The notes under the pieces are model-generated. The model had not been told where the DNA came from. It searched no databases and saw only the letters and a list, made by a program, of their open reading frames with translations. A program made the position numbers and the translations under genes. Of a stretch of DNA of 50,867 nt, positions 14,933 through 41,570 are shown piece after piece. The number at the start of each line of letters is the position of its first letter. The first letter of the stretch is position 1. Origin of the DNA: an uncultured Gammaproteobacteria bacterium. Its GTDB lineage: Bacteria; Patescibacteriota; Microgenomatia; Levybacterales; UBA12049. The stretch is from the NCBI GenBank assembly GCA_964646925.1, contig CAZYIC010000002.1, forward strand, positions 1 through 50,867. The letters are read 5' to 3'.

Positions 14933-15721
14933 ATGGTAATGGAGAGATTGGGTGCCGCAAGAAGGCTTCCTGAAAATCAAGATCCAACAAAACAATTTGC
15001 AATTGAACACGCAGAAAAAATGCTTGTTGATGCTGGCGTAAAAGATCCAGGAACGCTTGTTGCAACTTCCGTTGAAAAACCAACTCCAAAAATTGGAGAG
15101 CAATCACAAGATAAAGTAGGAAAAGTTGTTGTGGAATACAATTCTCAACCTTTGACTCCTGAACTTGTTAATAAAACTTGGCAAACTCTCTGGACAGAAT
15201 GGGGGAAAAGAGTTGGTCAGACATTTGAAATTCCACAGTGTGATCGAACCTCTGAAGAATTAGCTCAACTTAAAAAAGAAAATAAAGCAGTACTTCTTAT
15301 TCCCGACAATGTAGATTTGATTATGCTTGGCAAAATATTTCCCCAAATGCAGAGTCGGGCTGTATCAGAAGGAACAACGGTAACTGAATCAAGCAAAGGT
15401 GGAAGTATTGATACTGAAATGGATCTTGACTCTCCAAATAGAGATACAACTGAATTTCAAGCAAAGGATTTCCTTAAGCAGAATGGAAGAAACGGACAGA
15501 GATTAAGAACTTACATTATTGGCTCACAACTTAGCAAGTTATTAACTGGTCACTATTTTGACGAAAATGCATATTCTCGTTTGCCTGGTTCCCGTAATGA
15601 GGCCCGCATGGTGCTTGCTCACTTCCATTCGGATGGCGGCTTGCATGTCCGCTGGCATCTGGGTCCACTGCATCACGATCCGGACATGGGTTTTCGTTCC
15701 GAGGGAGTTAGAAAAGCTTAA
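14933..15721 (+). CDS. DGR variable (target) protein
   Basis: 262 aa. The C-terminal 40 aa (GSRNEARMVLAHFHSDGGLHVRWHLGPLHHDPDMGFRSE) are encoded by the VR. No obvious signal peptide. Confidence 0.85.
   Translation: MVMERLGAARRLPENQDPTKQFAIEHAEKMLVDAGVKDPGTLVATSVEKPTPKIGEQSQDKVGKVVVEYNSQPLTPELVNKTWQTLWTEWGKRVGQTFEIPQCDRTSEELAQLKKENKAVLLIPDNVDLIMLGKIFPQMQSRAVSEGTTVTESSKGGSIDTEMDLDSPNRDTTEFQAKDFLKQNGRNGQRLRTYIIGSQLSKLLTGHYFDENAYSRLPGSRNEARMVLAHFHSDGGLHVRWHLGPLHHDPDMGFRSEGVRKA
15587..15704 (+). repeat. DGR variable repeat (VR)
   Basis: 118 bp, 101/118 identical to 16020-16137. Every difference corresponds to an A in the other copy. Confidence 0.9.
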
Positions 15722-16019
15722 TCTTTTGATCCTTTGTCCTCTTTTGCATCTTTGAACTTTCCGTTTTTTTCTGATAGAGTAATAATTAAAGTAGGTTTAT
15801 GTTCCCAAGAGTATGCTTTTGAGACACCGAAATTATTGTTTTTCAAACATTTGCCGGAATTTCTATAAACTACGGTTTTAGAAAGAGTTGCAAAAGAAAA
15901 GCAAGATACTCCTTGTCTTTTGCTTGCGAAGGTCTCGCCACAGGCGAGTGCTTCCAAATAAAATACAATGTCTTGAGAAATCAGGCCGTGGTGAAAAAGA
16001 TGGCATAAGACAAAAAATA

Positions 16020-16137
16020 GGTTCCCGTAATGAGGACAACATGGTGAATGCTAACTTCAATTCGGATGGCAACTTGAATGTCAACTGGAATCTGAATCCA
16101 CAGAATCACGATCCGGACATGGGTTTTCGTTCCGAGG
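16020..16137 (+). repeat. DGR template repeat (TR)
   Basis: The non-coding copy. In the target frame it reads as 10 AAY (Asn) codons plus GAC and CAG at the 12 variable positions. The 3' 31 bp are invariant between TR and VR. Confidence 0.9.
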
Positions 16138-16155
16138 TAGAATCTTGCTTTTTCT

Positions 16156-16557
16156 TTATTGTTTTAATGATTTTCTCCATCCTCCAAGCATTCTGCCGAT
16201 TTCTTGGAGGAGTTGAATTAATTGGATATATTTTTTATTATCTAAAGCTTGTATATCTTTTGCAAGTCTTATCAGTATCCGAAGCATATCTAAGGACACT
16301 ATAGATTTTTCAATAAACGGTAATTTTTTCTCCTGGGAGTTCATTCCTGCTGTAATTGTTAGCTCAAAAATCGTGAGAGTAAGCCTGTCTATCTTTTGTC
16401 CTAGACTGTGTTGATCTTTCTTAGGGAAAAGTTTCAGATATTGGTACAATAATTTATAGAAGTCATATAGCTTTTGGAATAGCGGTATGTTAAACTGGTT
16501 ATCTGTTCTGTTCTGTTCTGTTCTGTTCTGTGAGGTGGGATTGTGATTTTGACTCAT
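16156..16557 (-). CDS. avd: Avd-like four-helix-bundle accessory protein
   Basis: Related to the 23S-IVS / four-helix-bundle family (LYDFYKLLYQYLKLFPKKDQHSLGQKIDRLTLTIFELT...RILIRLA). ATG at 16557; the ORF track extends to a TTG at 16572. On the opposite strand to TR and RT. Confidence 0.7.
   Translation of the reverse strand: MSQNHNPTSQNRTEQNRTDNQFNIPLFQKLYDFYKLLYQYLKLFPKKDQHSLGQKIDRLTLTIFELTITAGMNSQEKKLPFIEKSIVSLDMLRILIRLAKDIQALDNKKYIQLIQLLQEIGRMLGGWRKSLKQ
16503..16532. repeat. pentanucleotide repeat (CTGTT)5 plus one CTGTG unit
   Basis: Read directly from the sequence. Lies in avd codons 9-18 (QNRTEQNRT) and ends 1 nt before a GAGGTG Shine-Dalgarno-like box upstream of the RT start at GTG 16543. 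Confidence 0.95.
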
Positions 16558-17547
16558 ACACTCTATTCCCAAATTACCTCAATTGAGCATTTATTGCAAG
16601 CTTTCGATGAATTCAAAAAAGGCAAAAGAAGTAAAAAAGACGTGCAGTTTTTCGAAAGATTTTTAGAGGATAATCTTTTTGATTTGCATAGAAGGTTAGA
16701 AGCAAAAATCTATAAGCATTCTTCCTATACAGCTTTTAATATTTATGATCCTAAATTTCGCCATATTCATAAAGCAAAAGTTGCGGATAGAATAATGCAT
16801 CATGCCATAGTTTCAATAATTGAGCCAATTTTTGATAAAACATTTATCTATGATTCATATTCTTGCCGCAAAGAAAAGGGAACGCATAAAGCAGTTAAGA
16901 GATTATTTTATTTTGTAAGAAAAGTCAGCAGAAATTATACAGGAGATTGCTTTGCTCTGAAGCTTGATATTCGAAAATTCTTTGAAAATGTTGATCATCA
17001 GATTTTACTTAACCAGATAAAAAAGAGGATAGGCGATGATGACTTGCTATGGCTTCTTAAAAATATTTTGCAGAGTTTTTCAAAAGATAAAGGTATGCCT
17101 ATAGGAAATCTGACAAGTCAGGTGTTTGCAAATATTTACCTAAATGAATTGGATCAATTCATGAAACATGATCTAAAGATTAGATACTACCTTAGGTATT
17201 CAGATGACTTTGTTATTTTATCTCAAGACATTAATTATTTGAAAGGACTAATAAGGGGAATAGAAATATTTCTAAAAGAAAATTTGAAGCTATCTTTGCA
17301 TGAAGATAAGATCATAATCCGAAAATATACACAAGGAATTGATTTCTTAGGATATATTGTTCTGCCTCATTATGTTTTGCCGAGAACTAAGACGAAAAAG
17401 AGAATATTTAAGAAATTAAAGGAGAAAGTTGGTTCGGAAAATTTTGATCAGTCCTTGCAGTCATATTTAGGATACTTAGGATATGCGAATGCGTTTAGGC
17501 TTGCAGAGAAACTAAAGAATGAGATTTGGCTATGGAAAAAAGAATGA
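16543..17547 (+). CDS. DGR-type reverse transcriptase
   Basis: 334 aa with motif 4 PIGNLTSQVFANIYLNELD (the SQ signature of DGR RTs), the catalytic box RYSDDFVIL and ALKLDIRKFFENVDH. GTG start. Confidence 0.9.
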   Translation: MILTHTLYSQITSIEHLLQAFDEFKKGKRSKKDVQFFERFLEDNLFDLHRRLEAKIYKHSSYTAFNIYDPKFRHIHKAKVADRIMHHAIVSIIEPIFDKTFIYDSYSCRKEKGTHKAVKRLFYFVRKVSRNYTGDCFALKLDIRKFFENVDHQILLNQIKKRIGDDDLLWLLKNILQSFSKDKGMPIGNLTSQVFANIYLNELDQFMKHDLKIRYYLRYSDDFVILSQDINYLKGLIRGIEIFLKENLKLSLHEDKIIIRKYTQGIDFLGYIVLPHYVLPRTKTKKRIFKKLKEKVGSENFDQSLQSYLGYLGYANAFRLAEKLKNEIWLWKKE

Positions 17548-25976: not shown

Positions 25977-28340
25977 ATGCAAAATTTTTTAATTGAAGAT
26001 TTTACGTCATTTGTTACAAGTTTGGCATTGCTCGCTGTTTTTCTAGCCATTCTGGGCGTAGGATCATTTTTTTTGGGAAAACTTTTAATAATCTGGTACA
26101 AAAATAGAGGAAGAGAAAAAACTTCACTCGAATCAGTTTTATTGCAAGTGGCTCTTCCGCGGGACAATGAAATAAAGATAGATACCGCAGAACAATTATT
26201 TTCAAGCTTATCAGCCATTGGTAAGGGAGGACTATTTAAACTTGCGCCCCATCTTTCTTTTGAAATTGTAGGAATGCCGGCAGATATCCGTTTTTATGTT
26301 CACGCCCCAAAAAACTTAAAAGATTTGATTGAAAAACAAATTAATGGCGCATATCCTGATGCGGAAATACAAATTGTAAGTACGAATAGCATTAAAAAAG
26401 AAGGTATGATAATAGGAAATGAATACAATATTTTTTCACGAGAGGGAAAAGTTGCTTTTACATCTCTTAGGCTTAAATCCGAGGATTACAAACCAATAAA
26501 AGTTTACAAAGATTTGCCTACGGATTCTCTTTCTTCTATTACATCTGTCTTGGCAAAAATGACAGAAGGAGAGGGAGCTGTTATTCAAGTATTGATTACT
26601 CCTGCCAATTCCTCTTGGAAGAAATACGGGAGAGCTTTTCTTGCTAAAACCAAAAAACTGGAGTCCAATCCTGAAACAGCTAAATATTCTGCGGATGCCA
26701 AGGAGCTGGAAGGAATTGAGAATAAAATTAGTAAGCCAGGGTTTGAAACCGTAATAAGAATTGTCGTATCTTCAACTTCCAAGGAATCTGCAGAAGCGCA
26801 TTTAGGCAATATTATGAGCGTATTCAGCCAATTCGAGAGTATCAATTCATTCAAGAAAAACAAGCACAGGCTTAAAGGCATGTTTATGAACGACTTTATT
26901 TACAGATATTTGCCGATGACAGGCAAATCATCGGTTTTAACCAGTGAAGAATTGGCAACTTTGTTCCATTTTCCGAATAAATCGGTTACAACACCGAACA
27001 TATTTTGGATAAATGCAAAAAGAGCTCCTGCTCCGGCAACTATTCCAACAGCCGGTCTCTATCTTGGAAAAAGCACTTACAGGGGATTGGCAAAACCTGT
27101 TTATATGGATTTGGATGATCGAAGAAGGCATATGTACATAATTGGTAAAACCGGTACCGGTAAATCAGAGTTCCTAAAGGATATGATCATGCAGGATGTA
27201 AAGTCAGGACAGGGATTGGCGGTAATTGATCCTCATGGAGATTTAATTGATGATATTTTACCTCTAATTCCGCCAAAAAGAGCAGAAGATGTTATTCTTT
27301 TTGATCCATCTGACACAGCTCGGCCAATGGGATTTAACATGTTAGAAGCTGAGACTGAAGAGCAGAAGCATTATGTTGTTTCATCTATTATTGGCCTTAT
27401 GTACAAGCTTTTTGATCCGAACAAAACAGGTATTATCGGACCTAGATTCGAACACGCAATCCGTAATGCAATGTTAACAGTTATGTATGAAAAAGGAAGT
27501 ACTTTTGTTGAAGTGGTACGTGTTTTGACAGATGCAAATTATGTGCAAGAACTTTTGCCAAAAGTCCAGGACCCGATCATCAGGCGTTACTGGACAGATC
27601 AGATTGCTCAGACTTCGGATTTCCATAAATCAGAAGTTTTGGATTATATTGTTTCCAAGTTCGGCAGGTTTGTTACCAATAAAATGATCAGAAATATTAT
27701 TGGTCAATCAGATAGCGCGTTTAATTTCAGAAAGGTAATGGACGAGCAAAAGATCTTACTTATCAATTTAGCGAAAGGAAAAATTGGAGAAGAAAATTCA
27801 CAATTCTTGGGTTTAATTTTAGTTCCAAAAATACTTGTTGCTGCAATGAGCAGACAAGATATGGCAAAGGATTTAAGAAAAGACTTCTTCTTGTACGTTG
27901 ATGAGTTCCAGAATTTTGCAACGCCTGACTTTGCCCAAATTCTGTCCGAAGCCCGAAAGTATAAGTTAAATTTAATAGTTGCGAATCAGTTTATTGGTCA
28001 AATGGAGGAAGAAGTTAAGAATGCTATCTTTGGAAACGTAGGAAGCCTTGTCTCATTTAGAGTAGGAGTTACGGATGCCAATTATTTACAGCACGAATTC
28101 CAGCCTGTATTTACCGAGGCAGATTTAATCAATGTGGAAAGATACAATACTTATGTTAAGACTATTGTCGGCGGAGAACCTGTTACTCCATTCTCTATGG
28201 ATTTAACCCGGGACTTGAACCGGGAAAAAGCATTGGCAAATCCTCGGGTGGCAGAATTGGTACGCGAATTATCACGTCTCAAGTTTGGAAGAGATGCAGC
28301 AGCAATAGAAGCAGTAATCGCCCAACGCGCTCGTTTGTAG
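25977..28340 (+). CDS. membrane-anchored VirD4/TraD-like (TrwB_AAD_bind-type) P-loop ATPase
   Basis: 787 aa with an N-terminal TM segment, Walker A IIGKTGTGKSEF, VIDPHGDL, Walker B FFLYVDEFQNFA and LIVANQ. Confidence 0.55.
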   Translation: MQNFLIEDFTSFVTSLALLAVFLAILGVGSFFLGKLLIIWYKNRGREKTSLESVLLQVALPRDNEIKIDTAEQLFSSLSAIGKGGLFKLAPHLSFEIVGMPADIRFYVHAPKNLKDLIEKQINGAYPDAEIQIVSTNSIKKEGMIIGNEYNIFSREGKVAFTSLRLKSEDYKPIKVYKDLPTDSLSSITSVLAKMTEGEGAVIQVLITPANSSWKKYGRAFLAKTKKLESNPETAKYSADAKELEGIENKISKPGFETVIRIVVSSTSKESAEAHLGNIMSVFSQFESINSFKKNKHRLKGMFMNDFIYRYLPMTGKSSVLTSEELATLFHFPNKSVTTPNIFWINAKRAPAPATIPTAGLYLGKSTYRGLAKPVYMDLDDRRRHMYIIGKTGTGKSEFLKDMIMQDVKSGQGLAVIDPHGDLIDDILPLIPPKRAEDVILFDPSDTARPMGFNMLEAETEEQKHYVVSSIIGLMYKLFDPNKTGIIGPRFEHAIRNAMLTVMYEKGSTFVEVVRVLTDANYVQELLPKVQDPIIRRYWTDQIAQTSDFHKSEVLDYIVSKFGRFVTNKMIRNIIGQSDSAFNFRKVMDEQKILLINLAKGKIGEENSQFLGLILVPKILVAAMSRQDMAKDLRKDFFLYVDEFQNFATPDFAQILSEARKYKLNLIVANQFIGQMEEEVKNAIFGNVGSLVSFRVGVTDANYLQHEFQPVFTEADLINVERYNTYVKTIVGGEPVTPFSMDLTRDLNREKALANPRVAELVRELSRLKFGRDAAAIEAVIAQRARL

Positions 28341-28387
28341 GAGTATCACGGGGAGAAAAAGGTATCACGGGTACCACAGGGAGAAGA
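28339..28387. repeat. left arm of the inverted repeat bracketing the four-helix-bundle gene
   Basis: Three GTAYCACRGGG units (gtatcacgggg, gtatcacgggt, gtaccacaggg), mirrored at 28760-28803. Confidence 0.75.
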
Positions 28388-28393
28388 GATTAA

Positions 28394-28759
28394 ATGTTTG
28401 ATAAAAGCAATAAGGGCTACCATAAATTAATTCTTTGGCAAAAATTAAGAGAACTGTTGAGCCTAACTTATAAACTTACTAAAAAACTTCCTAGATCAGA
28501 GGAATTTGCTTTAATTCCACAAATGCGCAGAGCCATGGTTTCTGTAATTTCAAATTTTGTTGAGGGATATCTAAAAAGGAGTATTAAGGATAAAAATCGT
28601 TTCATGGAAATTGCTGAAACTTCTTTGATGGAGCTAGAAGCGCAAAGTGAAGTTTGTTTGATGTTGGAATATTGGACTAATTATGATTATGAAGTCTTTG
28701 ATAAGAAAAGATCCGGAGTTGGTTATTTCCTTTATCGTTACAAACTTAGTCTGAAGTAA
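28394..28759 (+). CDS. four-helix-bundle protein (23S rRNA intervening-sequence protein family)
   Basis: 121 aa with YHKLILWQKLRELLSLTYKLTKKLPRSEEFALIPQMRRAMVSVISNFVEGY. Confidence 0.75.
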   Translation: MFDKSNKGYHKLILWQKLRELLSLTYKLTKKLPRSEEFALIPQMRRAMVSVISNFVEGYLKRSIKDKNRFMEIAETSLMELEAQSEVCLMLEYWTNYDYEVFDKKRSGVGYFLYRYKLSLK

Positions 28760-28803
28760 CTCCTCGTGACACCCGTGGTACTCTTTTGCCCTGTGGTACT
28801 TCC
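28760..28803. repeat. right arm of the inverted repeat bracketing the four-helix-bundle gene
   Basis: cctcgtgac, cccgtggtac and ccctgtggtac are reverse complements of the left-arm units. Confidence 0.75.
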
Positions 28804-28808
28804 TTCAT

Positions 28809-28986
28809 TGGTAGGCCCAGGGGGAATCGAACCCGCATCAGGTGTGCACCTACCCGCCGCGCCTGTGCGTCCGCTTGGATTTGGACCAAGGACATCTACT
28901 TTATAAGAGTAGCGCTCTACCACTGAGCTACGGACGCGCTTTGGCAGGCGGGTAAGACACCCGCTTTACCATTAAGCTATGGGTCT
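28809..28986 (-). tRNA. interrupted tRNA (possible anticodon UAC) whose two halves flank another tRNA
   Basis: 5' half: AGACCCA-TA-GCTT-AATGGTA-AAGC-G-GGTGT-CTTAC... 3' half: ...ACACC-TGAT-GCGGG-TTCGATT-CCCCC-TGGGCCT-A-CCA. The D and anticodon stems are perfect. The acceptor stem pairs at 6/7 and the T stem at 4/5. Confidence 0.4.
28866..28937 (-). tRNA. tRNA-Ile(UAU)-like
   Basis: 72-nt cloverleaf: GCGTCCG-TA-GCTC-AGTGGTA-GAGC-G-CTACT-CTTATAA-AGTAG-ATGTC-CTTGG-TCCAAAT-CCAAG-CGGACGC-A. All stems are perfect. The T-loop has C at position 55. No encoded CCA. Confidence 0.7.
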
Positions 28987-29063
28987 TCAAGCATCAATTT
29001 TAACAGAAGGTGGAGAAAGAGACAAGTTAAAAAGAGATTTTGGTTTTTGATATAATCTATCCA

Positions 29064-29765
29064 ATGAAAAACAAAGTTATCCTTGCTGTTGGGGCGCATC
29101 CGGATGACATGGATTTCGGAGTGTCGGGAAGTATTGCCAAATGGGTCAAAGAGGGTGCAACAGCATATTATTTAATTTGTACAGACGGAAGCAGGGGTTC
29201 TGAAGACCCTAAAATGACGCACAAGCGTTTGGCGGAAATAAGAAAAAAAGAGCAGATTGATGCGGCAAAAGTTTTGGGAGTTAAAAAAGTTTTCTTTTTA
29301 AATCACACCGACACACAGCTTGTTTGCGATCTTACCCTGAAAGAAGAAATAGTAAGAATTATTCGAACAGTAAAACCGAACATTGTTGTCACAATGGATC
29401 CGACTTTTTATTTTTCAAAGGATCGGGGTTTTGTCAATCATACGGATCACCGGGCTGCAGCATTAGCAGCCATGGATGCTGTATTTCCTTTGTCCCGGGA
29501 CAGGCTGACTTTTCCGGAGCATGAAAAACAAGGACTAAAGCCGCATAAAGTTGAAGAACTTTTATTTATTTCTTTTTACAAAAAAGATTTTATTGTGGAT
29601 ATTTCAGAGACTTTCGACAAAAAGATTAAAGCTTTGGCAATGCACGCAAGCCAATTCGCAGATTTTCCCGCAGTTGAAAAAAGAGTAAGGGCAAGAGCAA
29701 AGAATTTAGGAAGATCTAGGGGTTATAAATTCGCGGAAAACTTCGTGAGAATAAAGCTCGTCTAG
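29064..29765 (+). CDS. PIG-L/LmbE family deacetylase
   Basis: VILAVGAHPDDMDFG and HTDHRAAA motifs. Start taken as ATG 29064. Confidence 0.75.
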   Translation: MKNKVILAVGAHPDDMDFGVSGSIAKWVKEGATAYYLICTDGSRGSEDPKMTHKRLAEIRKKEQIDAAKVLGVKKVFFLNHTDTQLVCDLTLKEEIVRIIRTVKPNIVVTMDPTFYFSKDRGFVNHTDHRAAALAAMDAVFPLSRDRLTFPEHEKQGLKPHKVEELLFISFYKKDFIVDISETFDKKIKALAMHASQFADFPAVEKRVRARAKNLGRSRGYKFAENFVRIKLV

Positions 29766-30637
29766 AGTTCGGTGAGGATGCCGTTTTCTTTGGCTCTTTC
29801 TTTTACGTATTCCAAATATCTTTCGGTTGTGGAAAGTCTTTTGTGCCCTAAAACCTTAGAAATAATTGTAAGCGATAGGCCATGCTTTAGGTGATGGGCA
29901 ACAAAGGTATGGCGAAGGTCATTGACTTTTGCATTTTTTATTTCAGCGAGTCTAAAATATCTTTCAACTGCAGTTCTAATATTCCTTATTAAAAATGGTT
30001 TTCCCGATTTTGTTATAAATAAGTGTTCCGAATTTCCGCCAGCTGGCTGATGATTAGGTCTTACCTTCAAGTAGCTGTTCAGAGCTTCCTGAGCTCTTTT
30101 ATTTAAGGGAACTATTCTTTCTGCGTGTTTTTCCTGTGCAGCTATATGCAGTCCTTCCTTTTGGATGTCTGAGATTTTAAGATTTGCCAATTCTCCAATT
30201 CTAATTCCTGTCTGAAGTAAAAGTTCGATAATGGCAAACATTCTCATATCATTCCTTGCTGCGTCCCTTAAAGCTCGATACTCCGTAGGAGTCAAAATTC
30301 GAGGAGCTGCCAGTTGATATCTCGGATGCGCAACCAGAAGAGACGGATCATCCGTAATATATTCATTTATTTTCAAAAATCTATAAAAAGTTCGCGTAGA
30401 ATTAAGCTTTCTTGAGATTGATTTTGGAGTATATCCGTTTTTGGACATTTTTGCCAAGAAAGACTCCAAATCATTCTTTGTTGCATCGTGAATGTGATTT
30501 TTGGACAAATCTTCCAAAAATTTAACTAACTGTTCGATATCTTTACTGTATGCTACAATAGTTGAAGCCGAATGCCTATTTTCACTTAAATATTTTTTAA
30601 ATTCCCGATGCGCATCCCTGATATTTATTGCTTTCAT
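29762..30637 (-). CDS. tyrosine site-specific recombinase, XerC/XerD-like
   Basis: 291 aa with an N-terminal SAM-like domain and a C-terminal RHTFVAHHL...LGHKRLSTTERYLEY (the catalytic R..H..R..Y pattern). Confidence 0.8.
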   Translation of the reverse strand: MKAINIRDAHREFKKYLSENRHSASTIVAYSKDIEQLVKFLEDLSKNHIHDATKNDLESFLAKMSKNGYTPKSISRKLNSTRTFYRFLKINEYITDDPSLLVAHPRYQLAAPRILTPTEYRALRDAARNDMRMFAIIELLLQTGIRIGELANLKISDIQKEGLHIAAQEKHAERIVPLNKRAQEALNSYLKVRPNHQPAGGNSEHLFITKSGKPFLIRNIRTAVERYFRLAEIKNAKVNDLRHTFVAHHLKHGLSLTIISKVLGHKRLSTTERYLEYVKERAKENGILTEL

Positions 30638-30655
30638 ATTTCGATTTCACTCAAT

Positions 30656-30682
30656 ATGATCCTGAGTTTATCGAAGGATCAT
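30656..30682. repeat. short palindromic element (ATGATCCT-N11-AGGATCAT)
   Basis: atgatcctgagtttatcgaaggatcat, located between the xer and ftsB-like genes. Confidence 0.6.
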
Positions 30683-30741
30683 AGTCTCTGATTTAAATTT
30701 TAGATAGCCTATAATATCAACTATATTGATATAAGTCAAGA

Positions 30742-31074
30742 ATGAGAAAAATTTTATTTGTCGTAATTGTAGTCATACTTCTTGTCATTATCAATGATCT
30801 TGCGCGTTCGATATATGATATTTGGCAGAAAAAAGATTTTGTAACTCAAGCAGAGAAAGAACTGAGTTTGCAAAAAGAGAAGAATAACAAGTTGAAATCA
30901 GAACTTTCTTATGTACAAACCACAGAATTTATAGAAAAAGAGGCCCGTGACAAACTTTTCATGGTTAAAAAAGGTGAGCAAAAGGTCCTGATCCCGAAGG
31001 AATTTGAAAATGCTTCAGGGATAAAAAAGGATAGTGATCCGAATTGGAGGCAATGGTGGAATCTATTTTTCTAG
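30742..31074 (+). CDS. ftsB: septum formation initiator (FtsB/DivIC-like)
   Basis: 110 aa with an N-terminal TM segment, a coiled coil and IEKEARDKLFMVKKGE. Confidence 0.6.
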   Translation: MRKILFVVIVVILLVIINDLARSIYDIWQKKDFVTQAEKELSLQKEKNNKLKSELSYVQTTEFIEKEARDKLFMVKKGEQKVLIPKEFENASGIKKDSDPNWRQWWNLFF

Positions 31075-31323
31075 AAAATCTTTTAACATCATTCGAAGAG
31101 TAGTTTTACCTTTTGTAGTCTTGAAGTATTTCTCCCTTCTTTTTGCATCTTTCTCACTTCTGTAAGCTTCATAAAATATTAGATCAAGCGGAGCATAAGC
31201 TTTTGTTGAGAGTTCTTCACGATTATTATGTTCGAAAAATCTTTTTTTAAGATTATGGGTAAAACCCACGTAGATAAAGTTCTTTGGTTTGCTCTGGAGG
31301 ACATAAACGTAGAAGAATTGCAT
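31063..31323 (-). CDS. GIY-YIG nuclease family protein
   Basis: 86 aa with FYVYVLQSKPKNFIYVGFTHNLKKRFFEHN. Confidence 0.75.
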   Translation of the reverse strand: MQFFYVYVLQSKPKNFIYVGFTHNLKKRFFEHNNREELSTKAYAPLDLIFYEAYRSEKDAKRREKYFKTTKGKTTLRMMLKDFLEK

Positions 31324-31430
31324 GAATAAAAATATTTGGGACGCACCAGTCGGTGCATCCCTGCCTCACACTCGCTACTTTTAAAATTGCTGCGCAGCGA
31401 TGAACCCGAGCGTAGCGAGTGGTTCGTTGT

Positions 31431-31497
31431 TGCGGGGTCGGGAGTTGCGCCCGACCTGTGAGATTATGAGCCTCACGTGCACTGTACACTACCCCGC
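31431..31497 (-). tRNA. tRNA-like element with CAU anticodon loop and non-canonical D and T arms
   Basis: GCGGGGT-A-GTG-TACAGTG-CAC-G-TGAGG-CTCATAA-TCTCA-CAGGT-CGGG-CGCAACT-CCCG-ACCCCGC-A. The acceptor (7 bp) and anticodon stems are good. The D arm has only 3 bp and lacks GG. The T-loop lacks TTC. Confidence 0.35.
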
Positions 31498-31612
31498 GCG
31501 TGAAACTATACTAACAAAACAAGATCAATTAGTCAACAAAAATTAGATGTTGACAAATTAATAAAACCTACAGTATAGTATTAGTACTATACTATATTGC
31601 TAGTTCATTTTT

Positions 31613-32296
31613 ATGGCAAAATCTTTACTTAGATTAGAAGCTCGCAAATTGCGTAAAAAAGGAGTAAGCGTTAAAAAAATAGCACAATACCTAAAAGTTG
31701 CAAAAAGTTCAGCGAGCATTTGGACAAGAGATATTATTTTAACTGTAGAGCAATTGGAAAACCTGAGAAAATCTAGCTTAGAGGGCTCAGCGCGTGGACG
31801 TTTTAAAAATGCCTTACTTCAAAAAGAAAAGTGGATAAAAAAAATGGAAGAATTTAAAAAATTAGGAATTGCCAGCATGGGCAAATTAACTGATAGAGAA
31901 TTCTTAATTGCAGGACTTGCGCTGTATTGGGGTGAAGGATATAAGAAAGGAAGAAGGTTGCAGTTTTGCAACTCAGATCCAAAAATGATTAAATTTTTGT
32001 TACTTTGGCTGCAAAAATGTTTTGATATCAGCAGTTTAGATATACGATGTCGAATAGGAATAAATTACATACATGCCAAGCGAGAAAATATAGTTAGGGA
32101 ATATTGGGTAGAAATTACAAGAATTCCACTGTGTCAATTCACGAGGACAAGCTTTAAGAAAATAGAAAACAAGAAGATATACGCTAATTTCAACAATTAT
32201 TATGGTACTTTATCTGTGGAAGTTTCGCGGCCTTCGCGCTTTTATGGTAAAATCATAGGGCTTATTGATGGATTATCCGTAAGTATGCCAACGTAG
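31613..32296 (+). CDS. HTH plus LAGLIDADG-like endonuclease-family protein
   Basis: 227 aa with an N-terminal HTH (VSVKKIAQYLKVAKSSASIWTRD) and the single motif FLIAGLALYWGEGYK, which resembles LAGLIDADG. Its 3' end overlaps the tRNA by 10 nt. Confidence 0.4.
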   Translation: MAKSLLRLEARKLRKKGVSVKKIAQYLKVAKSSASIWTRDIILTVEQLENLRKSSLEGSARGRFKNALLQKEKWIKKMEEFKKLGIASMGKLTDREFLIAGLALYWGEGYKKGRRLQFCNSDPKMIKFLLLWLQKCFDISSLDIRCRIGINYIHAKRENIVREYWVEITRIPLCQFTRTSFKKIENKKIYANFNNYYGTLSVEVSRPSRFYGKIIGLIDGLSVSMPT

Positions 32297-32358
32297 CTCA
32301 GTGGTAGAGCAATCGTTTCATAAGCGATCGATCGTCGGTTCGAATCCGACCGTTGGTA
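32287..32358 (+). tRNA. tRNA with CAU anticodon (Met, or Ile2 if lysidinylated)
   Basis: GCCAACG-TA-GCTC-AGTGGTA-GAGC-A-ATCGT-TTCATAA-GCGAT-CGATC-GTCGG-TTCGAAT-CCGAC-CGTTGGT-A. Canonical cloverleaf with a G1-U72 wobble. Confidence 0.85.
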
Positions 32359-32364
32359 CTTTTT

Positions 32365-33627
32365 ATGAAATTTATTTTTAAAGGGTACGATTCCAATCTT
32401 GAAAAAGGTGAGGTTCTTTTTCACTTTGGCTTCAGGGGTGAGAAAAACATAGATTTTACGGAGAAAGTTTCTTTTCCTCCGGTTGCGAATCAAATTCCGC
32501 AAGCTCTTCTTAAATCTTTGCTGGACAATCTTATGCTTATTTTGGGAATTTCGTATTGGAAGCTATATTGTCCAAAGGAAATTGTGATTGAAAATAATTT
32601 TTTAAATAAAGAGCAGGCTGAATTTTGGAATACTGTTTACACAAAGGGATTAGGAGAGTTTTTTTACAAAAATAAAATTGATTTTAGAGAACTAATTAAT
32701 TTTCCTTACGTTGAGGGTTTAAAAGCTAAGTCAATTGATTCTCCAAGATCAAATCGTTCTCTTTTGGGAATTGGGGGAGGAAAAGATTCAATTGTTGTCG
32801 CGGAAATTCTAAAAGAAGCCAACAGGGAATTTGATATGTTTACCTTGAGTTTTCCCCTGCAAGTCGAAGTTGCAAGAGTAATTGGTGGCAAAGTTATAAA
32901 TATAAAAAGAGAGATAGACTCAAAACTTTTGGAATTAAATAAACAAAAAGGCACTTACAATGGTCATATTCCTGTCTCTGTTATCTATGCATTCTTAGGT
33001 TTAATGTCTGCAATTTTTTATGCTTACAATTCTGTTATTGTTGGAAATGAGAAAAGTGCAAATTATGGAAATGTTGAATACTTGGGTGAGATCATTAATC
33101 ATCAATGGAGCAAATCCGAAGAGTTTGAAAAACTTTTCAACGAATACGTTAGAAGATTTATAACGCCAGATATCGCATATTCATCGCCTTTAAGAAATAT
33201 GACAGAGTTGCAAGTTGTAAAAAAATTTGTTAATTATCCAAAATATTTTAGAGCGTTTTCGAGCTGCAATAAAAATTTTAAGATTGGAAAATCACACCTC
33301 GGAGGAGTCGTCAAGCGCCACCTCCGAGGTGACCGGATGGGCTCCTCGGAGGTGTTGGGGAAATGGTGCGGGGAGTGTCCGAAATGTTTGTTTGTTTTTA
33401 TCTGCCTGGCAGCTTTTTTGCCAAAAAAAGAAGTTTTGGATATTTTTGGTAAGAATTTACTTGAAGATGAAAGCTTAATTCCTCTTTTTGAAGAATTAAT
33501 TGGAGTAAGGAATTTCAAACCTTTCGAATGTGTTGGAACACCGCAAGAAGTCAGAGAGGCGCTAGTATTAATTAATAAGAGAGGAGAGTTTAAAGATTCT
33601 ATTTTAACGAAACATTATGAAGATTGA
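32365..33627 (+). CDS. PP-loop (GGGKDS) ATP-pyrophosphatase-superfamily protein, possibly MurL-like
   Basis: 420 aa from ATG 32365 with LLGIGGGKDSIV at about residue 140 and a C-terminal WCGECPKC. Overlaps the murD start by 11 nt. Confidence 0.35.
   Translation: MKFIFKGYDSNLEKGEVLFHFGFRGEKNIDFTEKVSFPPVANQIPQALLKSLLDNLMLILGISYWKLYCPKEIVIENNFLNKEQAEFWNTVYTKGLGEFFYKNKIDFRELINFPYVEGLKAKSIDSPRSNRSLLGIGGGKDSIVVAEILKEANREFDMFTLSFPLQVEVARVIGGKVINIKREIDSKLLELNKQKGTYNGHIPVSVIYAFLGLMSAIFYAYNSVIVGNEKSANYGNVEYLGEIINHQWSKSEEFEKLFNEYVRRFITPDIAYSSPLRNMTELQVVKKFVNYPKYFRAFSSCNKNFKIGKSHLGGVVKRHLRGDRMGSSEVLGKWCGECPKCLFVFICLAAFLPKKEVLDIFGKNLLEDESLIPLFEELIGVRNFKPFECVGTPQEVREALVLINKRGEFKDSILTKHYED
33295..33354. 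repeat. in-frame triple repeat CACCTCGGAGG / CCTCCGAGGTG / TCCTCGGAGGTG
   Basis: Direct, inverted and direct copies at 33295-33305, 33321-33331 and 33343-33354. GC-rich. Encodes HLGGVVKRHLRGDRMGSSEV. Confidence 0.7.
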
Positions 33628-34951
33628 TGAACTAAAAAATAAAAAAATATTAATTGTAGGTAAAGGGATAGAAGGTAGAGCCGTATTTGCGTATTTGAGG
33701 CAACACCTTCCAGGTGTCAGGCTAGATATTGTTGATCAGAAAGATGGAGAGGATTATTTAGACCAACAAAAAAATTATGACATTGCAGTAAGGTCTCCGG
33801 GAGTAAAACCTGAGCTTTTAACAATTCCATATACAACCACAACAAATATTTTTTTGTCTAACGCCAAAGGCAAAGTAATTGGAATAACCGGAACAAAAGG
33901 AAAAAGCACTACCGCAACTCTTATTTATAAAATGTTAAAAGCTCAGGGTTTGGACGCATTTCTTGGTGGAAATATCGGACAATCACCTTTGGACTTTATA
34001 GATAGCCTAAATGATAATTCGTGGACAGTTTTGGAAATGTCATCCTATCAATTAAATGATTTGAAAATAAGCCCCGCCCGCCATGCAAGCCTGCAAGGCG
34101 TTGCGGGCGGGCCGCATATTGCCGTTATCCTAATGATAACTTCGGAACATTTGGATTATCACAAGACTCAGGAATCTTATATTGATGCGAAAAGAAATAT
34201 CCTTAGATTTCAAAAAACTTCGGATTTTGCAGTTATAAATAAAGATTATCCGGCAAGCCATGAATCGGATATTCATACGGTTGGTCAAGTTTTCAGAATA
34301 AGTCGCGAAAGAGAAGTTGGAGATGGGTGTTTCACAATTGGCGAAACAATTGAATTAAAAATTAAAAATGAAAAATTAAAAATTATTGATACTAATAAAA
34401 TTAAGCTTTTAGGTAAACATAATCTTGAGAATGTCTGCGCTGCATGCATGGCGGCTTATTTAGCGGGAGTTTCTATAAAAAATATTGTGAAAATTTTGGA
34501 AGAGTTTGGAGGACTTGAGCACAGACTGGAATATGTTGGAGAAAAAAATGGTGTCACTTTTTATAATGATTCTTTGGCAACAGTTCCTCAGGCTGCAATT
34601 GAGGCAATGGAGGCTTTGCCGGATGCGGAAACTTTAATTGCGGGGGGACATGATAGAGGATTGGATTATTCTATTCTTGGACAATATTTTAATAAGGGGC
34701 AAATTAAAACATTGATTTTGTTTTCCCCAACAGGAGAGCGGATTTGGAAAGCAATTTGTGATGCAACATCAGAAAGCTCAAGACCTGAGAAATTTGATGT
34801 AAAAAATATGGAACAAGCAGTAAGAATTGCGGCAGCGGAAACAACTCCCGGAAAAATCTGTTTGTTGTCTCCGGCGTCCGCATCTTTTGGCACGTTTAAA
34901 GACTACAAAGACCGCGGAGATCAATTTAAAAAGGAAGTAAGCAAATTATAA
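33617..34951 (+). CDS. murD: UDP-N-acetylmuramoylalanine--glutamate ligase (MurD family)
   Basis: 444 aa with GITGTKGKSTT, EMSSYQL, SEHLDYH and GKHNLEN. Confidence 0.85.
   Translation: MKIDELKNKKILIVGKGIEGRAVFAYLRQHLPGVRLDIVDQKDGEDYLDQQKNYDIAVRSPGVKPELLTIPYTTTTNIFLSNAKGKVIGITGTKGKSTTATLIYKMLKAQGLDAFLGGNIGQSPLDFIDSLNDNSWTVLEMSSYQLNDLKISPARHASLQGVAGGPHIAVILMITSEHLDYHKTQESYIDAKRNILRFQKTSDFAVINKDYPASHESDIHTVGQVFRISREREVGDGCFTIGETIELKIKNEKLKIIDTNKIKLLGKHNLENVCAACMAAYLAGVSIKNIVKILEEFGGLEHRLEYVGEKNGVTFYNDSLATVPQAAIEAMEALPDAETLIAGGHDRGLDYSILGQYFNKGQIKTLILFSPTGERIWKAICDATSESSRPEKFDVKNMEQAVRIAAAETTPGKICLLSPASASFGTFKDYKDRGDQFKKEVSKL
34071..34113. repeat. GC-rich palindromic element inserted in frame in murD
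   Basis: gccccgcccgccatgcaagcctgcaaggcgttgcgggcgggcc. Arms cccgcccgc / gcgggcggg. Encodes ARHASLQGVAGGP between SSYQL and the SEHLD motif. Confidence 0.75.
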
Positions 34952-35679: not shown

Positions 35680-36929
35680 ATAAAGATTTCAAGTTTAAAA
35701 TTTTAAAAAAAGACAACAAGTCTCAAGCTAGGGTAGGGGAAATTACAACTGCGCATGGAATAATTAAAACTCCTGCTTTTGTGCCGGTTGGCACAAAAGC
35801 AACTGTGAAAGGATTAACTCCGCAAGATCTGAAAGAATGTGGAGTTCAGATCCTGTTTGGTAACACTTATCATTTGCATTTAAGACCGGGTGAGGATTTG
35901 ATACGGGAGATGGGTGGACTTGCTAGGTTTATGAGTTGGGATGGGACTGCCCGCAACGCCTCGTCTAGCTCGGCTAGCGTTGCAGGCGGGCCAACTATTA
36001 CCGATTCAGGAGGATTTCAGGTTTTTTCATTGGGACAAGTAAAAATAAAATTAACAGAAGAAGGAGAGGGAACAGAGGTAAATGTTGTCAGCATAAAAGA
36101 TGACGGGGTAATGTTTAGGTCTCATATTGACGGATCAAAACATTTATTTACTCCTGAAGTTTCAATTGAAATCCAAAAGAAATTGGGAGCAGATCTGATA
36201 CTTTCTTTTGATGAATGCGCCCCTCATCCTTCAACGCATAAATATACAAAGGAGGCAATGGAAAGAACCCACAAGTGGGCCATTCGAAGTTTAAAAGCTT
36301 TTAAAGAAAAAAATTTTCATCCGTGGCAACAGGCATTGTATGGAATTATTCAGGGAGGAGTTTATAAGGATTTAAGAGAAGAATCAGCAAAATTTATTTC
36401 TAATCTTACCCTGAGCGGAGCCGAAGGGTTTGACGGAATTGCAATCGGAGGAGTGGCGGTTGGTGAAAGTAAAAAAGAGATGGAAAATGTTTTGGAATGG
36501 ACAGCACCTTTTTTGCCGGAAGATAAACCAAGACACTTATTGGGAATAGGAGAAATAGATGATATTTTTACAGCCATTGAGAACGGAATGGATACTTTTG
36601 ATTGCGTTATTCCAACCCGTTTCGGAAGATATGGAGTAGTTTTCGTTTTTCCGCCCGAGGGAAATATTAAGAATAAGTTCAGAATTGATATTAACAAAAC
36701 TATTTTCGCCAAAGACCAAAGACCATTGTCCAAAGACTGCTCATGTTATGTATGTGAAACATTTACTAGGGCATATATTCATCATCTTTTCCGCGCGCAG
36801 GAATTACTTGCCTATCGTTTAGCCAGCTATCACAACATGTTTTTCATTAATAATTTGGTTAAAAAAATCAGAGAAGCAATTTTAGATGAAAAGCTGGGAG
36901 AGATGAAAAGGAAGTGGTTGGGCATTTAA
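35676..36929 (+). CDS. tgt: queuine tRNA-ribosyltransferase
   Basis: 417 aa with TPAFVPVGT, TDSGGFQVFSL and the Zn motif CSCYVC...H. Confidence 0.9.
   Translation: MNKDFKFKILKKDNKSQARVGEITTAHGIIKTPAFVPVGTKATVKGLTPQDLKECGVQILFGNTYHLHLRPGEDLIREMGGLARFMSWDGTARNASSSSASVAGGPTITDSGGFQVFSLGQVKIKLTEEGEGTEVNVVSIKDDGVMFRSHIDGSKHLFTPEVSIEIQKKLGADLILSFDECAPHPSTHKYTKEAMERTHKWAIRSLKAFKEKNFHPWQQALYGIIQGGVYKDLREESAKFISNLTLSGAEGFDGIAIGGVAVGESKKEMENVLEWTAPFLPEDKPRHLLGIGEIDDIFTAIENGMDTFDCVIPTRFGRYGVVFVFPPEGNIKNKFRIDINKTIFAKDQRPLSKDCSCYVCETFTRAYIHHLFRAQELLAYRLASYHNMFFINNLVKKIREAILDEKLGEMKRKWLGI
35947..35992. repeat. GC-rich palindromic element inserted in frame in tgt (same family as in murD)
   Basis: ctgcccgcaacgcctcgtctagctcggctagcgttgcaggcgggcc. 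The 3' 16 nt match the murD copy at 15/16. Encodes TARNASSSSASVAGG between W-D-G and P-T-I-TDSGGFQ. Confidence 0.8.
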
Positions 36930-40479: not shown

Positions 40480-41478
40480 ATGAAACGTGTATACTCTGGC
40501 ATACGTGCTACCGGAAGGTTGCACCTGGGAAATTATTTTGGGGCAGTCAAGGGAATGCTTGCTTTGCAAGAAACTTACGACTGCATATTCTCTGTGGTTG
40601 ATCTGCATACAATCACAGTTCCGTATCAGCCTGACACCCTTCAGGTGTCCGTACGAAATATAATATTGGATTACTTGGCAGCAGGATTAGATCCAGAAAA
40701 ATGCAAGATCGAAATTCAATCAAAAATTCCTCAGCATACGGAGCTTGCCTATTTATTATCAACTATTTATCAAGTTTCACGACTTGAGGATTTGCCAACC
40801 TACAAAGAGAAAAAAGCCCAGTACCCGAAGTATGTGAATATGGGGCTTTTGTATTATCCGGTTCTGATGGCTGCGGACGTATTGCTTTACAAAGGAGAGT
40901 TAGTGCCGGTTGGCATAGATCAGGAGCCGCATTTGGAAGTCATGCGGGAAATCGCCAGAAAGTTTAACTCAATGTTTGGTCAAACATTTCCAGAGCCTCA
41001 ACGGTTTAAAACCGAAGGCCTGCCTGCCGGCAGGCAGGGCGAATATGTTCCGTCTTTGGCAGGAGCAGGAAAGATGAGCAAATCAATTGATGGGAGCTTT
41101 ATTAATCTAACAGATGATTTGGAAACTATAAAAAAGCGTTTGGCAGGAACACCAACAGACTCCGGAACAACTGGCGGAGAATTGCCAAAAACAGGTGGAA
41201 TTGCTAATCTATTTACTCTGTTAAAGCTGTTTAAATTGGATAAAGAGTACACTAAATTTGAACAAGATTATAAGGATAAAAAAATCAGATATTCAGAGCT
41301 AAAAGAAGTTTTAGCGCAGGGTATTTTTAAAGAACTCCAACCTTTTCAAGAAAGAAGAAGGGAATTTGAGGAAAATCAAAGTCTCGTAGATAATATTATT
41401 GAAGAGGGAAGGGTAAAATGTACTCATATGGCAGAAGAAACCATGAAAGAAGTCCGCTCCAAAATGGGCCTCGTCTAA
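40480..41478 (+). CDS. trpS: tryptophanyl-tRNA synthetase
   Basis: 332 aa with TGRLHLGNYFGA (HIGH-like) and KMSKS. Confidence 0.9.
   Translation: MKRVYSGIRATGRLHLGNYFGAVKGMLALQETYDCIFSVVDLHTITVPYQPDTLQVSVRNIILDYLAAGLDPEKCKIEIQSKIPQHTELAYLLSTIYQVSRLEDLPTYKEKKAQYPKYVNMGLLYYPVLMAADVLLYKGELVPVGIDQEPHLEVMREIARKFNSMFGQTFPEPQRFKTEGLPAGRQGEYVPSLAGAGKMSKSIDGSFINLTDDLETIKKRLAGTPTDSGTTGGELPKTGGIANLFTLLKLFKLDKEYTKFEQDYKDKKIRYSELKEVLAQGIFKELQPFQERRREFEENQSLVDNIIEEGRVKCTHMAEETMKEVRSKMGLV
41019..41038. repeat. perfect 20-bp GC-rich palindrome in frame in trpS
   Basis: cctgcctgccggcaggcagg encodes LPAGRQG just upstream of the KMSKS loop. Confidence 0.9.
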
Positions 41479-41534: not shown

Positions 41535-41563
41535 TTGGCTAAGAGAGGGATTTGTGGTATACT
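41535..41563 (+). promoter_or_regulatory. putative ftsH promoter (leaderless geometry)
   Basis: TTGGCT, a 17-nt spacer, then TATACT (41558-41563), followed by 7 nt to ATG 41571. Confidence 0.4.
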
Positions 41564-41570
41564 CACCTCG

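Follow-up and report, generated by a model that had tools for sequence, protein, structure and literature searches.

A tRNA-Ile(UAU) gene nested within the anticodon loop of a second tRNA-Ile(UAU) gene in Levybacteria

To our knowledge group I introns are the only interruptions known in bacterial tRNA genes, and the full-text literature searched contained no description of one tRNA nested in another, nor of an interruption of a bacterial tRNA gene by anything other than a group I intron. Here we analyze a 50,867-nt stretch of DNA (contig CAZYIC010000002.1, hereafter the window), i.e. ~50 kb of one genome of Levybacteria (candidate phyla radiation) with ~37% GC. The analysis covers this part of the genome, the proteins of which are all bacterial (rnpA, YidC, MurD, DivIC, RuvABC). 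On its minus strand, at 28986-28809, lies a nested unit of 178 nt that comprises two tRNA halves with a complete tRNA between them. Both tRNAs are tRNA-Ile(UAU), and the outer is severed within its anticodon by an insert of 104 nt that contains the inner.

Several known systems share part of this organization. The group I introns found in the anticodon loops of bacterial tRNA genes (cyanobacterial tRNA-Leu(UAA) and tRNA-fMet) occupy a comparable site, are sporadic among close relatives, suggesting mobility, and are part of a unit driven by the host promoter, and in all of this the insert resembles them. It differs in having no ribozyme, and in lying between nucleotides 35 and 36 after an A, and not after a U that is paired to G. 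Moreover a spare gene, and not splicing, most likely restores function. The bulge-helix-bulge introns of archaeal tRNA genes, including the tRNA-Trp intron in which a box C/D RNA is nested (PMC4090602), also contain a functional small RNA and a helix that extends the anticodon stem. The split tRNAs of Nanoarchaeum (PMC4090602) resemble what would be left of the nested unit on removal of the inner RNA, i.e. two halves held together by a GC-rich helix. By contrast, the nested unit occurs in a bacterium as one contiguous gene. It has one 3-nt bulge and a paired 5′ junction, is interrupted at 35/36 and not at 37/38, and the nested RNA is a full tRNA having the same anticodon.

Integrative elements that target tRNA genes resemble the insert in a different respect, in that the inserted DNA supplies what the insertion destroys and the host keeps a working tRNA. 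These elements are kilobases in length, encode an integrase, carry a duplicate of the 3′ part of the gene alone and re-form the same tRNA, whereas the 104-nt insert brings a whole different tRNA and the resident gene stays broken. The intervening sequences of 23S rRNA, which are excised by RNase III and not re-ligated, are sporadic hairpins in a loop of a structural RNA; the insert is of this kind too, and is probably likewise removed by ordinary processing enzymes. However, a fragmented rRNA works, whereas a tRNA cut through its anticodon cannot decode, and thus a nested spare is needed.

The nested unit and the identity of the outer tRNA

All parts of the nested unit are read on the minus strand. 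The outer 5′ half (28986-28953, 34 nt) corresponds to nucleotides 1-35 of a resident tRNA-Ile(UAU), termed type A, and contains the 5′ strand of the acceptor stem, the D arm, the 5′ strand of the anticodon stem, and C32, U33, U34 and A35. It is followed by the insert, which consists of a 15-nt 5′ arm (CCCGCCTGCCAAAGC, 28952-28938) that starts with a 9-mer of the palindrome family described below, the 72-nt inner tRNA (28937-28866), and a 17-nt 3′ arm (CAGGCGCGGCGGGTAGG, 28865-28849) in which GGCG and GGCGGG pair with the 5′ arm. The outer 3′ half (28848-28812, 37 nt) provides nucleotides 36-73 of the resident tRNA, i.e. U36, G37, C38, the 3′ strand of the anticodon stem, the variable loop, the T arm, the 3′ strand of the acceptor stem and the discriminator A. 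A genome-encoded CCA (28811-28809) follows the discriminator. The insert lies exactly between anticodon nucleotides 35 and 36 (CTTA-insert-TAC). Alignment with relatives makes this placement unambiguous, and comparison with the uninterrupted ones reveals no target duplication at this site. The junction sequences are GGGTGTCTTACCCGCC and GGCGGG[CT]AGGT[AG]CACACC.

The inner tRNA is called Ile(tat) by ARAGORN, and scores 72.5 bits (E 5e-14) on the Rfam tRNA family RF00005, for which the gathering threshold is 29 bits. Its anticodon loop is CTTATAA, with A37 present; the discriminator is A and no CCA is encoded. The sequence signature of this type of tRNA, referred to as C-like below, is GTAGCTCAGYGGTAGAGCG-N5-CTTATAA. 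A preliminary description of the locus, made from the sequence alone, called its cloverleaf perfect. This is correct for the folding, but the T loop, TCCAAAT, has C55 (28884) in place of the normally invariant U55. The inner and outer tRNAs have no stem sequences in common. A match of the Rfam family 'Plastid-ycf2 5′UTR' to 28865-28937 of the plus strand was rejected at 38.7 bits against a threshold of 65.7 bits; it is the antisense strand of the inner tRNA.

The pairings of the outer halves are all present as first described: the anticodon stem GGTGT/ACACC, the D stem, six of seven acceptor pairs with an A3.C70 mismatch, and four of the five pairs of the T stem. The halves are separated as was noted, the distance between the strands of the anticodon stem being 111 nt (7 of loop and 104 of insert) and not ~115 nt. 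When joined with any 7-nt loop they are called as a tRNA by ARAGORN under default settings. The interrupted outer gene is called neither by Rfam nor by the intron mode of ARAGORN, which had been proposed as a check and which gives the inner tRNA only, even at lowered thresholds.

The identity of the outer gene is provided by its relatives. Syntenic loci were gathered using homologues of the neighboring PIG-L deacetylase and the type IV secretion system (T4SS)-coupling protein, and eleven loci with readable sequence were compared (the window, L001, L004, L005, L018, L020, L021, L022, L023, L024 and L026). Five of these (L001, L004, L005, L018 and L020) have at the syntenic place a tRNA-Ile(TAT) without interruption, with one and the same sequence (AGGCCCATAGCTTAATGGTAAAGCGGGTGTCTTATACACACCTGATGCGGGTTCGATTCCCCCTGGGCCTA) throughout, that scores 66.4 bits on the Rfam tRNA family (L001). 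The outer halves in the window match this gene at 69 of 71 positions, and the window differs from it by the 104-nt insert and two substitutions, and by nothing else. Because the halves match an uninterrupted syntenic tRNA of five relatives to this extent, the outer fold is, on this comparison, not due to chance. We conclude from the alignment that the outer gene is the resident type A tRNA-Ile(UAU), severed in its anticodon, i.e. the same isoacceptor is nested in itself. The central claim of the preliminary description, that a complete tRNA lies in the anticodon loop of another, is therefore borne out by ARAGORN, by the Rfam score and by this match, but the outer tRNA is not the tRNA-Val(UAC) that it was taken to be. 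Of the TAC read as its anticodon, the first two letters are U34 and A35 from the native UAU and the last is the initial C of the insert; the assignment as tRNA-Val is rejected by the syntenic tRNA-Ile(UAU), split here at 35/36.

The two substitutions are private to the window copy, being found in none of the five uninterrupted genes nor in a second nested allele (L021, below). One is G3A (28984) in the outer 5′ half, and the other A37G (28847) in the outer 3′ half. A37 is the adenine that carries N6-threonylcarbamoyladenosine (t6A) in tRNAs that read ANN codons. Both substitutions therefore strike functional positions, since G3A breaks the 3:70 acceptor pair and A37G removes the adenine for t6A. 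The mismatch in the T stem, C50.C64, is native and present in all relatives.

In the predicted minimum-free-energy fold the inner cloverleaf stands upon a GC-rich stalk of ~14 bp that extends the outer anticodon stem past a 3-nt bulge (z = -2.85). Following the bulge the stalk is formed by pairing of CUUACCCGCC with GGCGGGUAGG and then UGCC with GGCG, and there is a small internal loop between it and the acceptor stem of the inner tRNA. The suggestion that the ends of the insert pair with each other is thus upheld, the arms forming the stalk. The last four nucleotides of the insert, TAGG, pair with C32-A35 of the outer loop, leaving U36-N37-C38 as the bulge. The insert of L021 ends in CAGG, placing an A35.C mismatch where the window has a pair, and the minimum-free-energy structure of this copy is the full double cloverleaf.

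A group I intron in a tRNA gene is typically >200 nt in length, and the U at the end of its 5′ exon pairs with a G of the internal guide sequence. The insert was correctly judged too short for such an intron. It is 104 nt of which 72 are the tRNA, there is no conserved catalytic core (P3-P9), and a search of 28000-33000 with Rfam at E<=10 gave no match to a group I family. The 5′ exon ends in A35 and not in the U of a U.G pair; the partner of A35 is a U in the window, and in L021 a C stands opposite it. A group I intron was therefore rejected.

The bulge-helix-bulge motif has two 3-nt bulges with a 4-bp helix between them, both splice sites being located within the bulges (PMC4090602). In the nested unit there is only a 3′ bulge (U36 N37 C38), with the 3′ junction of the insert at its edge and not inside it, and the 5′ junction, A35-CCC, is paired with GGG and U. 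An intron of this kind was rejected on these grounds. No splicing endonuclease (EndA/Sen) or ligase domain was found among the scanned open reading frames (ORFs) of the window. A split tRNA was also rejected, as both halves lie together in the contiguous 178-nt unit, which has one promoter-like site ahead of it. The likeness to the split tRNAs of Nanoarchaeum drawn in the preliminary description does not hold for such a contiguous transcription unit, with no bulge-helix-bulge and a bacterial host.

We note that a tRNA-Ile(TAT) with an insertion of 41 nt in the anticodon loop, placed at 33/34 by ARAGORN, is present at 2155-2267 of a contig from the viral collection (L028, IMG/VR contig IMGVR_UViG_3300045988_089961). 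The Rfam tRNA match extends over 113 nt with 52.4 bits, and this insertion too is too short for a group I intron.

A second nested allele and the turnover of tRNA-Ile(UAU)

A second nested allele was sought in metagenome contigs as two invariant outer segments spaced by 94-124 nt. The scan yielded a single other locus, L021 (Ga0213870_1004205, 2972-3149), having the same insert at the same nucleotide. The nested units differ at 4 of 178 positions. G3 and A37 are both intact in L021, its inner T loop is the normal TTCAAAT where the window has C55, and CAGG replaces TAGG at the end of its insert. L021 thus has outer halves of exactly the native type A sequence, and its inner tRNA scores 76.7 bits on the Rfam tRNA family. 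The inserts are identical at 102 of 104 positions, and the arms outside the tRNA at 31 of 32.

The genomes that carry these almost identical units are far more diverged. Over 1980 nt of the T4SS-coupling gene the window and L021 have 79.2% nucleotide identity and 53.6% identity at third positions, the lowest values of all pairs among nine loci; the T4SS-coupling proteins are 88% and the recombinases 86% identical. The neighboring genes and the orientation of the tRNA also differ. Judged from these sequences the two genomes are of different species. This makes it most improbable that the nested unit is an assembly artefact or a chimeric contig. Both sequences do come from metagenome assemblies, and both tRNAs have the loop sequence CTTATA in common, yet two independent assemblies of different species have the same insert at the same nucleotide in different flanks, and the junctions fall in the unique arms and not in the shared sequence.

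The probability of so few differences in the arms is 0.005 at the overall divergence of the two loci and ~6e-8 at that of third positions. The insert site is empty in the five type A loci (L001, L004, L005, L018 and L020), including closer relatives, and filled in the window and L021. In neighbor-joining trees un-inserted type A loci are grouped with the window, and loci bearing a different type of tRNA with L021; the tree is star-like, and this placement of the two nested alleles in different clades is suggestive only. P0150 adjoins the window in the tree of the T4SS-coupling protein, and the gap there is 120 nt, too short for the nested unit. Either the insert has moved horizontally and recently, or the arms are strongly constrained and there have been several precise losses. 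From these comparisons horizontal spread appears the more likely. We see no sign of flanking DNA that traveled with the insert, since the 3′ flanks of the window and L021 have nothing in common beyond CCA, and the 42 nt upstream are no more alike between them (32/42) than either is to L001 (33/42). Site-specific insertion and homologous recombination through the invariant tRNA halves of 34 and 37 nt would give an identical product. Integrase-mediated integration with a crossover in the anticodon loop was rejected, as it would give hybrid tRNAs and not a nested one.

No relevant match came from scans of viral contigs for either tRNA (inner or outer), the junction of the arm or the consensus of the palindromes; a single 18-mer match, in a GC-rich contig, was rejected as fortuitous. 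When the insert was compared by BLAST with phage and plasmid collections, only generic tRNA similarity was seen. A scan of a genome collection that required the C55 T loop of the window (GGTCCAAATCC), a pattern blind to the normal T loop, gave 12 matches, none in Levybacteria. One of the 12 lies in a called tRNA gene, a tRNA-Ile(UAU) of Bacillota.

The locus as a whole, between the gene for the T4SS-coupling protein and that for a tyrosine recombinase, is variable. At all eleven readable loci there is a tRNA-Ile(TAT) beside the T4SS-coupling gene, the recombinase gene or both, but its type differs. Type A is found in L001, L004, L005, L018 and L020, an unrelated type B (GGGCTCGTAGTTCA...) in L022, L024 and L026, and type C in L023, while the window and L021 have type A with the nested C-like tRNA. 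All of these tRNA genes score between 59 and 77 bits on the Rfam tRNA family. The interval is thus hypervariable, with a tRNA-Ile(UAU) in either orientation and of three unrelated sequence types. The accompanying genes vary as well, and include an IVS/Avd-like protein, PIG-L, a PIN/Phd pair, a UPF0259-like protein, and DUF5678 with an aspartic protease. In the window a separate IVS/Avd-like protein (PF05635, with a weak bAvd match) is encoded at 28394-28759, adjoining the nested tRNA.

The free-standing type C tRNA of L023 is identical to the inner tRNA at 56 of 72 positions. Because there are four compensatory base-pair changes between them, both are working members of one tRNA lineage. The L023 tRNA is followed directly by CAGGAGCGGCGGACAG, which matches the 3′ arm of the insert at 14 of 16 positions with the same offset (3 of 2000 shuffles were as good). 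Further on, at the expected spacing, GTCCGATTCC matches the type A T arm at 9 of 10 positions, which is marginal (71 of 2000 shuffles). There is no significant remnant of the outer 5′ half in the 5′ flank of this tRNA, where 363 of 2000 shuffles were as good. With moderate confidence, these flanking matches suggest that L023 represents a later stage of the same replacement process.

The T loops of this clade are unusual. C55 is found in the inner tRNA of the window (28884) and also in the type B tRNA of L022 (GGTCCGACTCC, 4908-4980), and the T loop of the type C tRNA of L023 (4627-4699), ATCGTCC, looks like a swap of T54/A58 to A54/T58.

Probable replacement of the resident gene

A promoter-like site of the outer tRNA gene is found at 29025-28997 on the minus strand, with a -35 sequence TTGTCT (29025-29020), a spacer of 17 nt and a TG-extended -10 sequence TAAAAT (29002-28997). 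It ends 11 nt before the start of the outer tRNA, and the promoter block CTTGTCTC...TGTTAAAAT is also present upstream of the tRNA in L021 and L001. A scan of 28600-29200, insert included, gave no promoter-like site inside the insert, so that the inner tRNA would depend on the resident promoter. AUA accounts for 23.4 per 1000 codons and 27.6% of the Ile codons, and a tRNA that decodes it is therefore needed.

The explanation that we favor, and regard as reasonably probable, is that a tRNA gene is being replaced in situ by a small hairpin-borne tRNA cassette, with the inner tRNA made from the resident promoter and the outer halves a relic. The resident type A gene would have received the 104-nt insert between nucleotides 35 and 36, and the whole nested unit would be transcribed from the resident promoter. 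RNase P, for which the gene of the protein subunit (rnpA) is present in the window, together with an RNase Z-type 3′ endonuclease and followed by CCA addition, would release the inner tRNA, and this would now decode AUA. The outer halves, having one arm each, would stay base paired without an anticodon loop as a decaying by-product. With the anticodon severed and splicing signals absent, they could presumably not decode. The insertion would be survivable because the cargo carries the same anticodon as the gene that it breaks. This match of cargo and target is best explained by selection, as the loss of a needed single-copy decoder would be tolerable only if the insert supplies one.

The alleles could then be arranged as a series in decay, in which the window is without the G3:C70 pair and A37, and L023 keeps only the 3′ arm and a faint remnant of the 3′ half. 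That the outer gene might be a disrupted pseudogene was left open in the preliminary description; with the pair and A37 lost in the window this is now the best reading of it. If the replacement is real, a foreign equivalent has been caught in the act of displacing an essential tRNA gene, a process that normally goes unseen, with stages before, during and after in different species. It would also tie tRNA displacement to small GC-rich palindromes that occur in housekeeping proteins of a lineage of the candidate phyla radiation.

There are a number of observations that weigh against replacement. The outer halves of L021 are fully intact, so that decay is visible in one of the two alleles, and with four substitutions, which fall in outer halves, arm and inner tRNA, relaxed constraint is not statistically distinguishable from maintained constraint. 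In the window the inner tRNA itself has U55C at a nearly universal position, an objection that is tempered by C55 in the sole tRNA-Ile(UAU) at the L022 locus. CCA is encoded only at the nested outer 3′ ends, which could mean that the outer 3′ end still matters. The pairing of the last four nucleotides of the insert with nucleotides 32-35, beside the 3-nt bulge U36-N37-C38, is half of a bulge-helix-bulge geometry. The relic in L023 rests on a 16-nt arm match and a marginal 10-nt match. Lastly, ~50 kb of the genome is visible, and a second tRNA-Ile(UAU), a tilS with tRNA-Ile2, or an RNA ligase may lie elsewhere in it.

Some of these observations would be accommodated if the gene gave rise to two tRNAs. 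The insert would then be an intron, the outer halves being cut at 35/36 and re-ligated (for example by an endonuclease and an RtcB-type ligase) so that both tRNAs mature. The nucleotide-for-nucleotide integrity of the outer tRNA in L021, the stalk that extends the anticodon stem with a 3-nt bulge beside the 4-bp helix of nucleotides 32-35 and the 3′ end of the insert, the CCA encoded at both nested outer ends unlike every other tRNA gene seen, and the arms conserved at 31/32 between distant species are all consistent with this. Yet a ribozyme is impossible in 104 nt of which 72 are tRNA, with no group I match at E<=10, and of the two bulges of a bulge-helix-bulge only one is present, the 5′ junction being fully paired in the window. 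Protein-dependent splicing of tRNA is not known in Bacteria (PMC4090602). The window copy is without A37 and the G3:C70 pair, two tRNAs of the same anticodon would be redundant, and in the relatives one uninterrupted gene, of whichever of the three types, is sufficient. We therefore consider production of both tRNAs from the gene to be improbable. Splicing of the outer tRNA as such also seems unlikely from these features, and is retained at a low probability because of the intact outer gene in L021 and the CCA. Were the outer tRNA spliced, it would be the first case of protein-dependent or otherwise non-ribozyme tRNA splicing in Bacteria.

The dependence of the inner tRNA on the resident promoter, there being no promoter match of its own, raises another possibility: that the outer halves have been co-opted as a scaffold for expression or processing, not decoding but constrained for transcription, folding, or processing by RNase P and at the 3′ end. 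The intact outer halves of L021, the high conservation of the arms and the CCA found in nested outer alleles only would be expected of such a scaffold. It should be dispensable, however, as the inner-type tRNA of L023 is free-standing without the 5′ half or the 5′ arm, and the acceptor pair is broken in the window. Moreover the outer halves are invariant in all relatives in any case, so that their conservation is uninformative. We think that a scaffold role has little probability.

The encoded CCA is confined to the two nested outer alleles (28809-28811 in the window and 3147-3149 in L021). In 20 other tRNA genes of the window and related loci, the five uninterrupted type A genes among them, C is followed by A or T at positions 74-75. 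In both nested alleles the flank resembles the un-inserted flank with CA changed to CCA. The CCA could possibly have been inherited with the unit from a common ancestor, have been selected for after nesting, or derive from passage through a reverse-transcribed, CCA-tailed RNA.

The last of these would be part of an origin at the level of RNA, in which a mature, CCA-tailed type A tRNA was cut in the anticodon loop, a hairpin-flanked tRNA precursor ligated in, and the chimera reverse-transcribed back into the gene. This proposal addresses the origin of the allele, and is compatible with the replacement reading of its present function. The CCA in just these two alleles, the exact insertion in the anticodon loop without target duplication, and an active-looking diversity-generating retroelement reverse transcriptase in the genome would fit such a route. 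But each CCA is accounted for just as well by insertion of a single C, a free copy of the arm-flanked donor has not been seen, and the mechanism is without precedent; shared ancestry of the alleles would furthermore make the two CCA observations a single event. An RNA-level origin is accordingly judged to be rather remote, and the retroelement lends it circumstantial support only.

The retroelement itself is located at 14933-17547. It has an active-looking RVT_1 reverse transcriptase ORF at 16543-17547, a template repeat at 16020-16140, and a variable repeat at 15587-15707 that lies at the C-terminus of the ORF at 14933-15721. The repeats are 121 nt in length and 85% identical, and 17 of their 18 differences are at template adenines.

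Palindromic elements in the window

The ends of the tRNA insert are related to a family of GC-rich palindromes of ~45 nt that lie inside housekeeping ORFs of this 37% GC genome. One is in murD (34071-34116, plus strand), where it gives an in-frame insertion of 12 amino acids relative to solved MurD. Another is in tgt (35950-35993, plus strand), giving an in-frame insertion of 15 amino acids relative to a solved structure. A third is at 41004-41049 in an ORF for a Trp/Tyr-tRNA synthetase, and an imperfect one, CCCGCCTGCCGGCAGGGCAGGGCAGGC, is at the 5′ end of the ftsH ORF (41592-41647, plus strand). The palindrome in ftsH agrees with the 5′ arm of the tRNA insert over all of its first 10 nt.

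The insert starts with CCCGCCTGC, and the window has five exact matches of the 9-mer CCCGCCYGC (0.13 expected), all of them at ends of elements. Its 3′ arm has CAGGCG..GGG, as do the palindromic elements. The relationship to the murD and tgt palindromes that had been proposed from the termini of the insert is borne out by the 9-mer. The tRNA insert may be the master form of this family, as also suggested at first, or may instead be a palindrome to which a tRNA was added. Among 120 TGT homologues of Levybacteria the tgt site is filled in seven (GPARNAS...VAG, flanked by repeated Gly-Pro). The closest homologues, with 80-81% identity, are without the insert, and other sites of TGT hold other short, lineage-specific inserts. 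The duplicated Gly-Pro that flanks the insert may be part of the palindrome.

These elements have pairing arms, conserved ends, several copies, and presence/absence polymorphism at the tRNA and tgt sites, as do MITEs (transposable elements of the miniature inverted-repeat kind), repetitive extragenic palindromic (REP) repeats and Rickettsia palindromic elements (RPEs). No transposase domain was found among the scanned ORFs of the window. The Rickettsia palindromic elements and MITE/REP-like repeats (PMC10969869) are likewise short palindromes with conserved ends and several copies per genome. They are also insertion-polymorphic and tolerated in frame in housekeeping proteins, as seen here in murD, tgt, the Trp/Tyr-tRNA synthetase and ftsH. 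The elements of the window differ in being ~45 nt and GC-rich in a 37% GC genome, and in that one copy is tipped with a tRNA and lies within a tRNA gene. On the evidence of their sequences and distribution, the palindromes of the murD and tgt type are insertion-polymorphic, translated elements comparable to those of Rickettsia (PMC10969869).

The tRNA insert might then be viewed, tentatively, as a self-compensating selfish element: a hairpin of ~100 nt that inserts into the anticodon of an essential tRNA-Ile(UAU) gene present in single copy, and is harmless only by virtue of its own tRNA-Ile(UAU). As part of the same speculative proposal, it would arrive by site-specific insertion or by recombination through the invariant halves, could not be lost once fixed, and would move between species of Levybacteria. 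Such an element would add to self-splicing introns, inteins and RNase III-excised intervening sequences a further way for DNA to reside in an essential gene, and would provide a concrete mechanism for the repeated replacement of the tRNA gene at this locus.

The ftsH gene (41535-44807) also contains an intein with a LAGLIDADG homing-endonuclease domain (Pfam Intein_splicing and LAGLIDADG_3). Elsewhere in the window ARAGORN calls a 70-nt tRNA-Met(CAT) at 31429-31498 on the minus strand, which Rfam does not call at threshold. It has an unusual T loop (GCGCAAC) and a short D region, and is kept beside a canonical CAT tRNA in L001, L005, L021 and L022; it could be an atypical initiator or a tRNA-Ile2.

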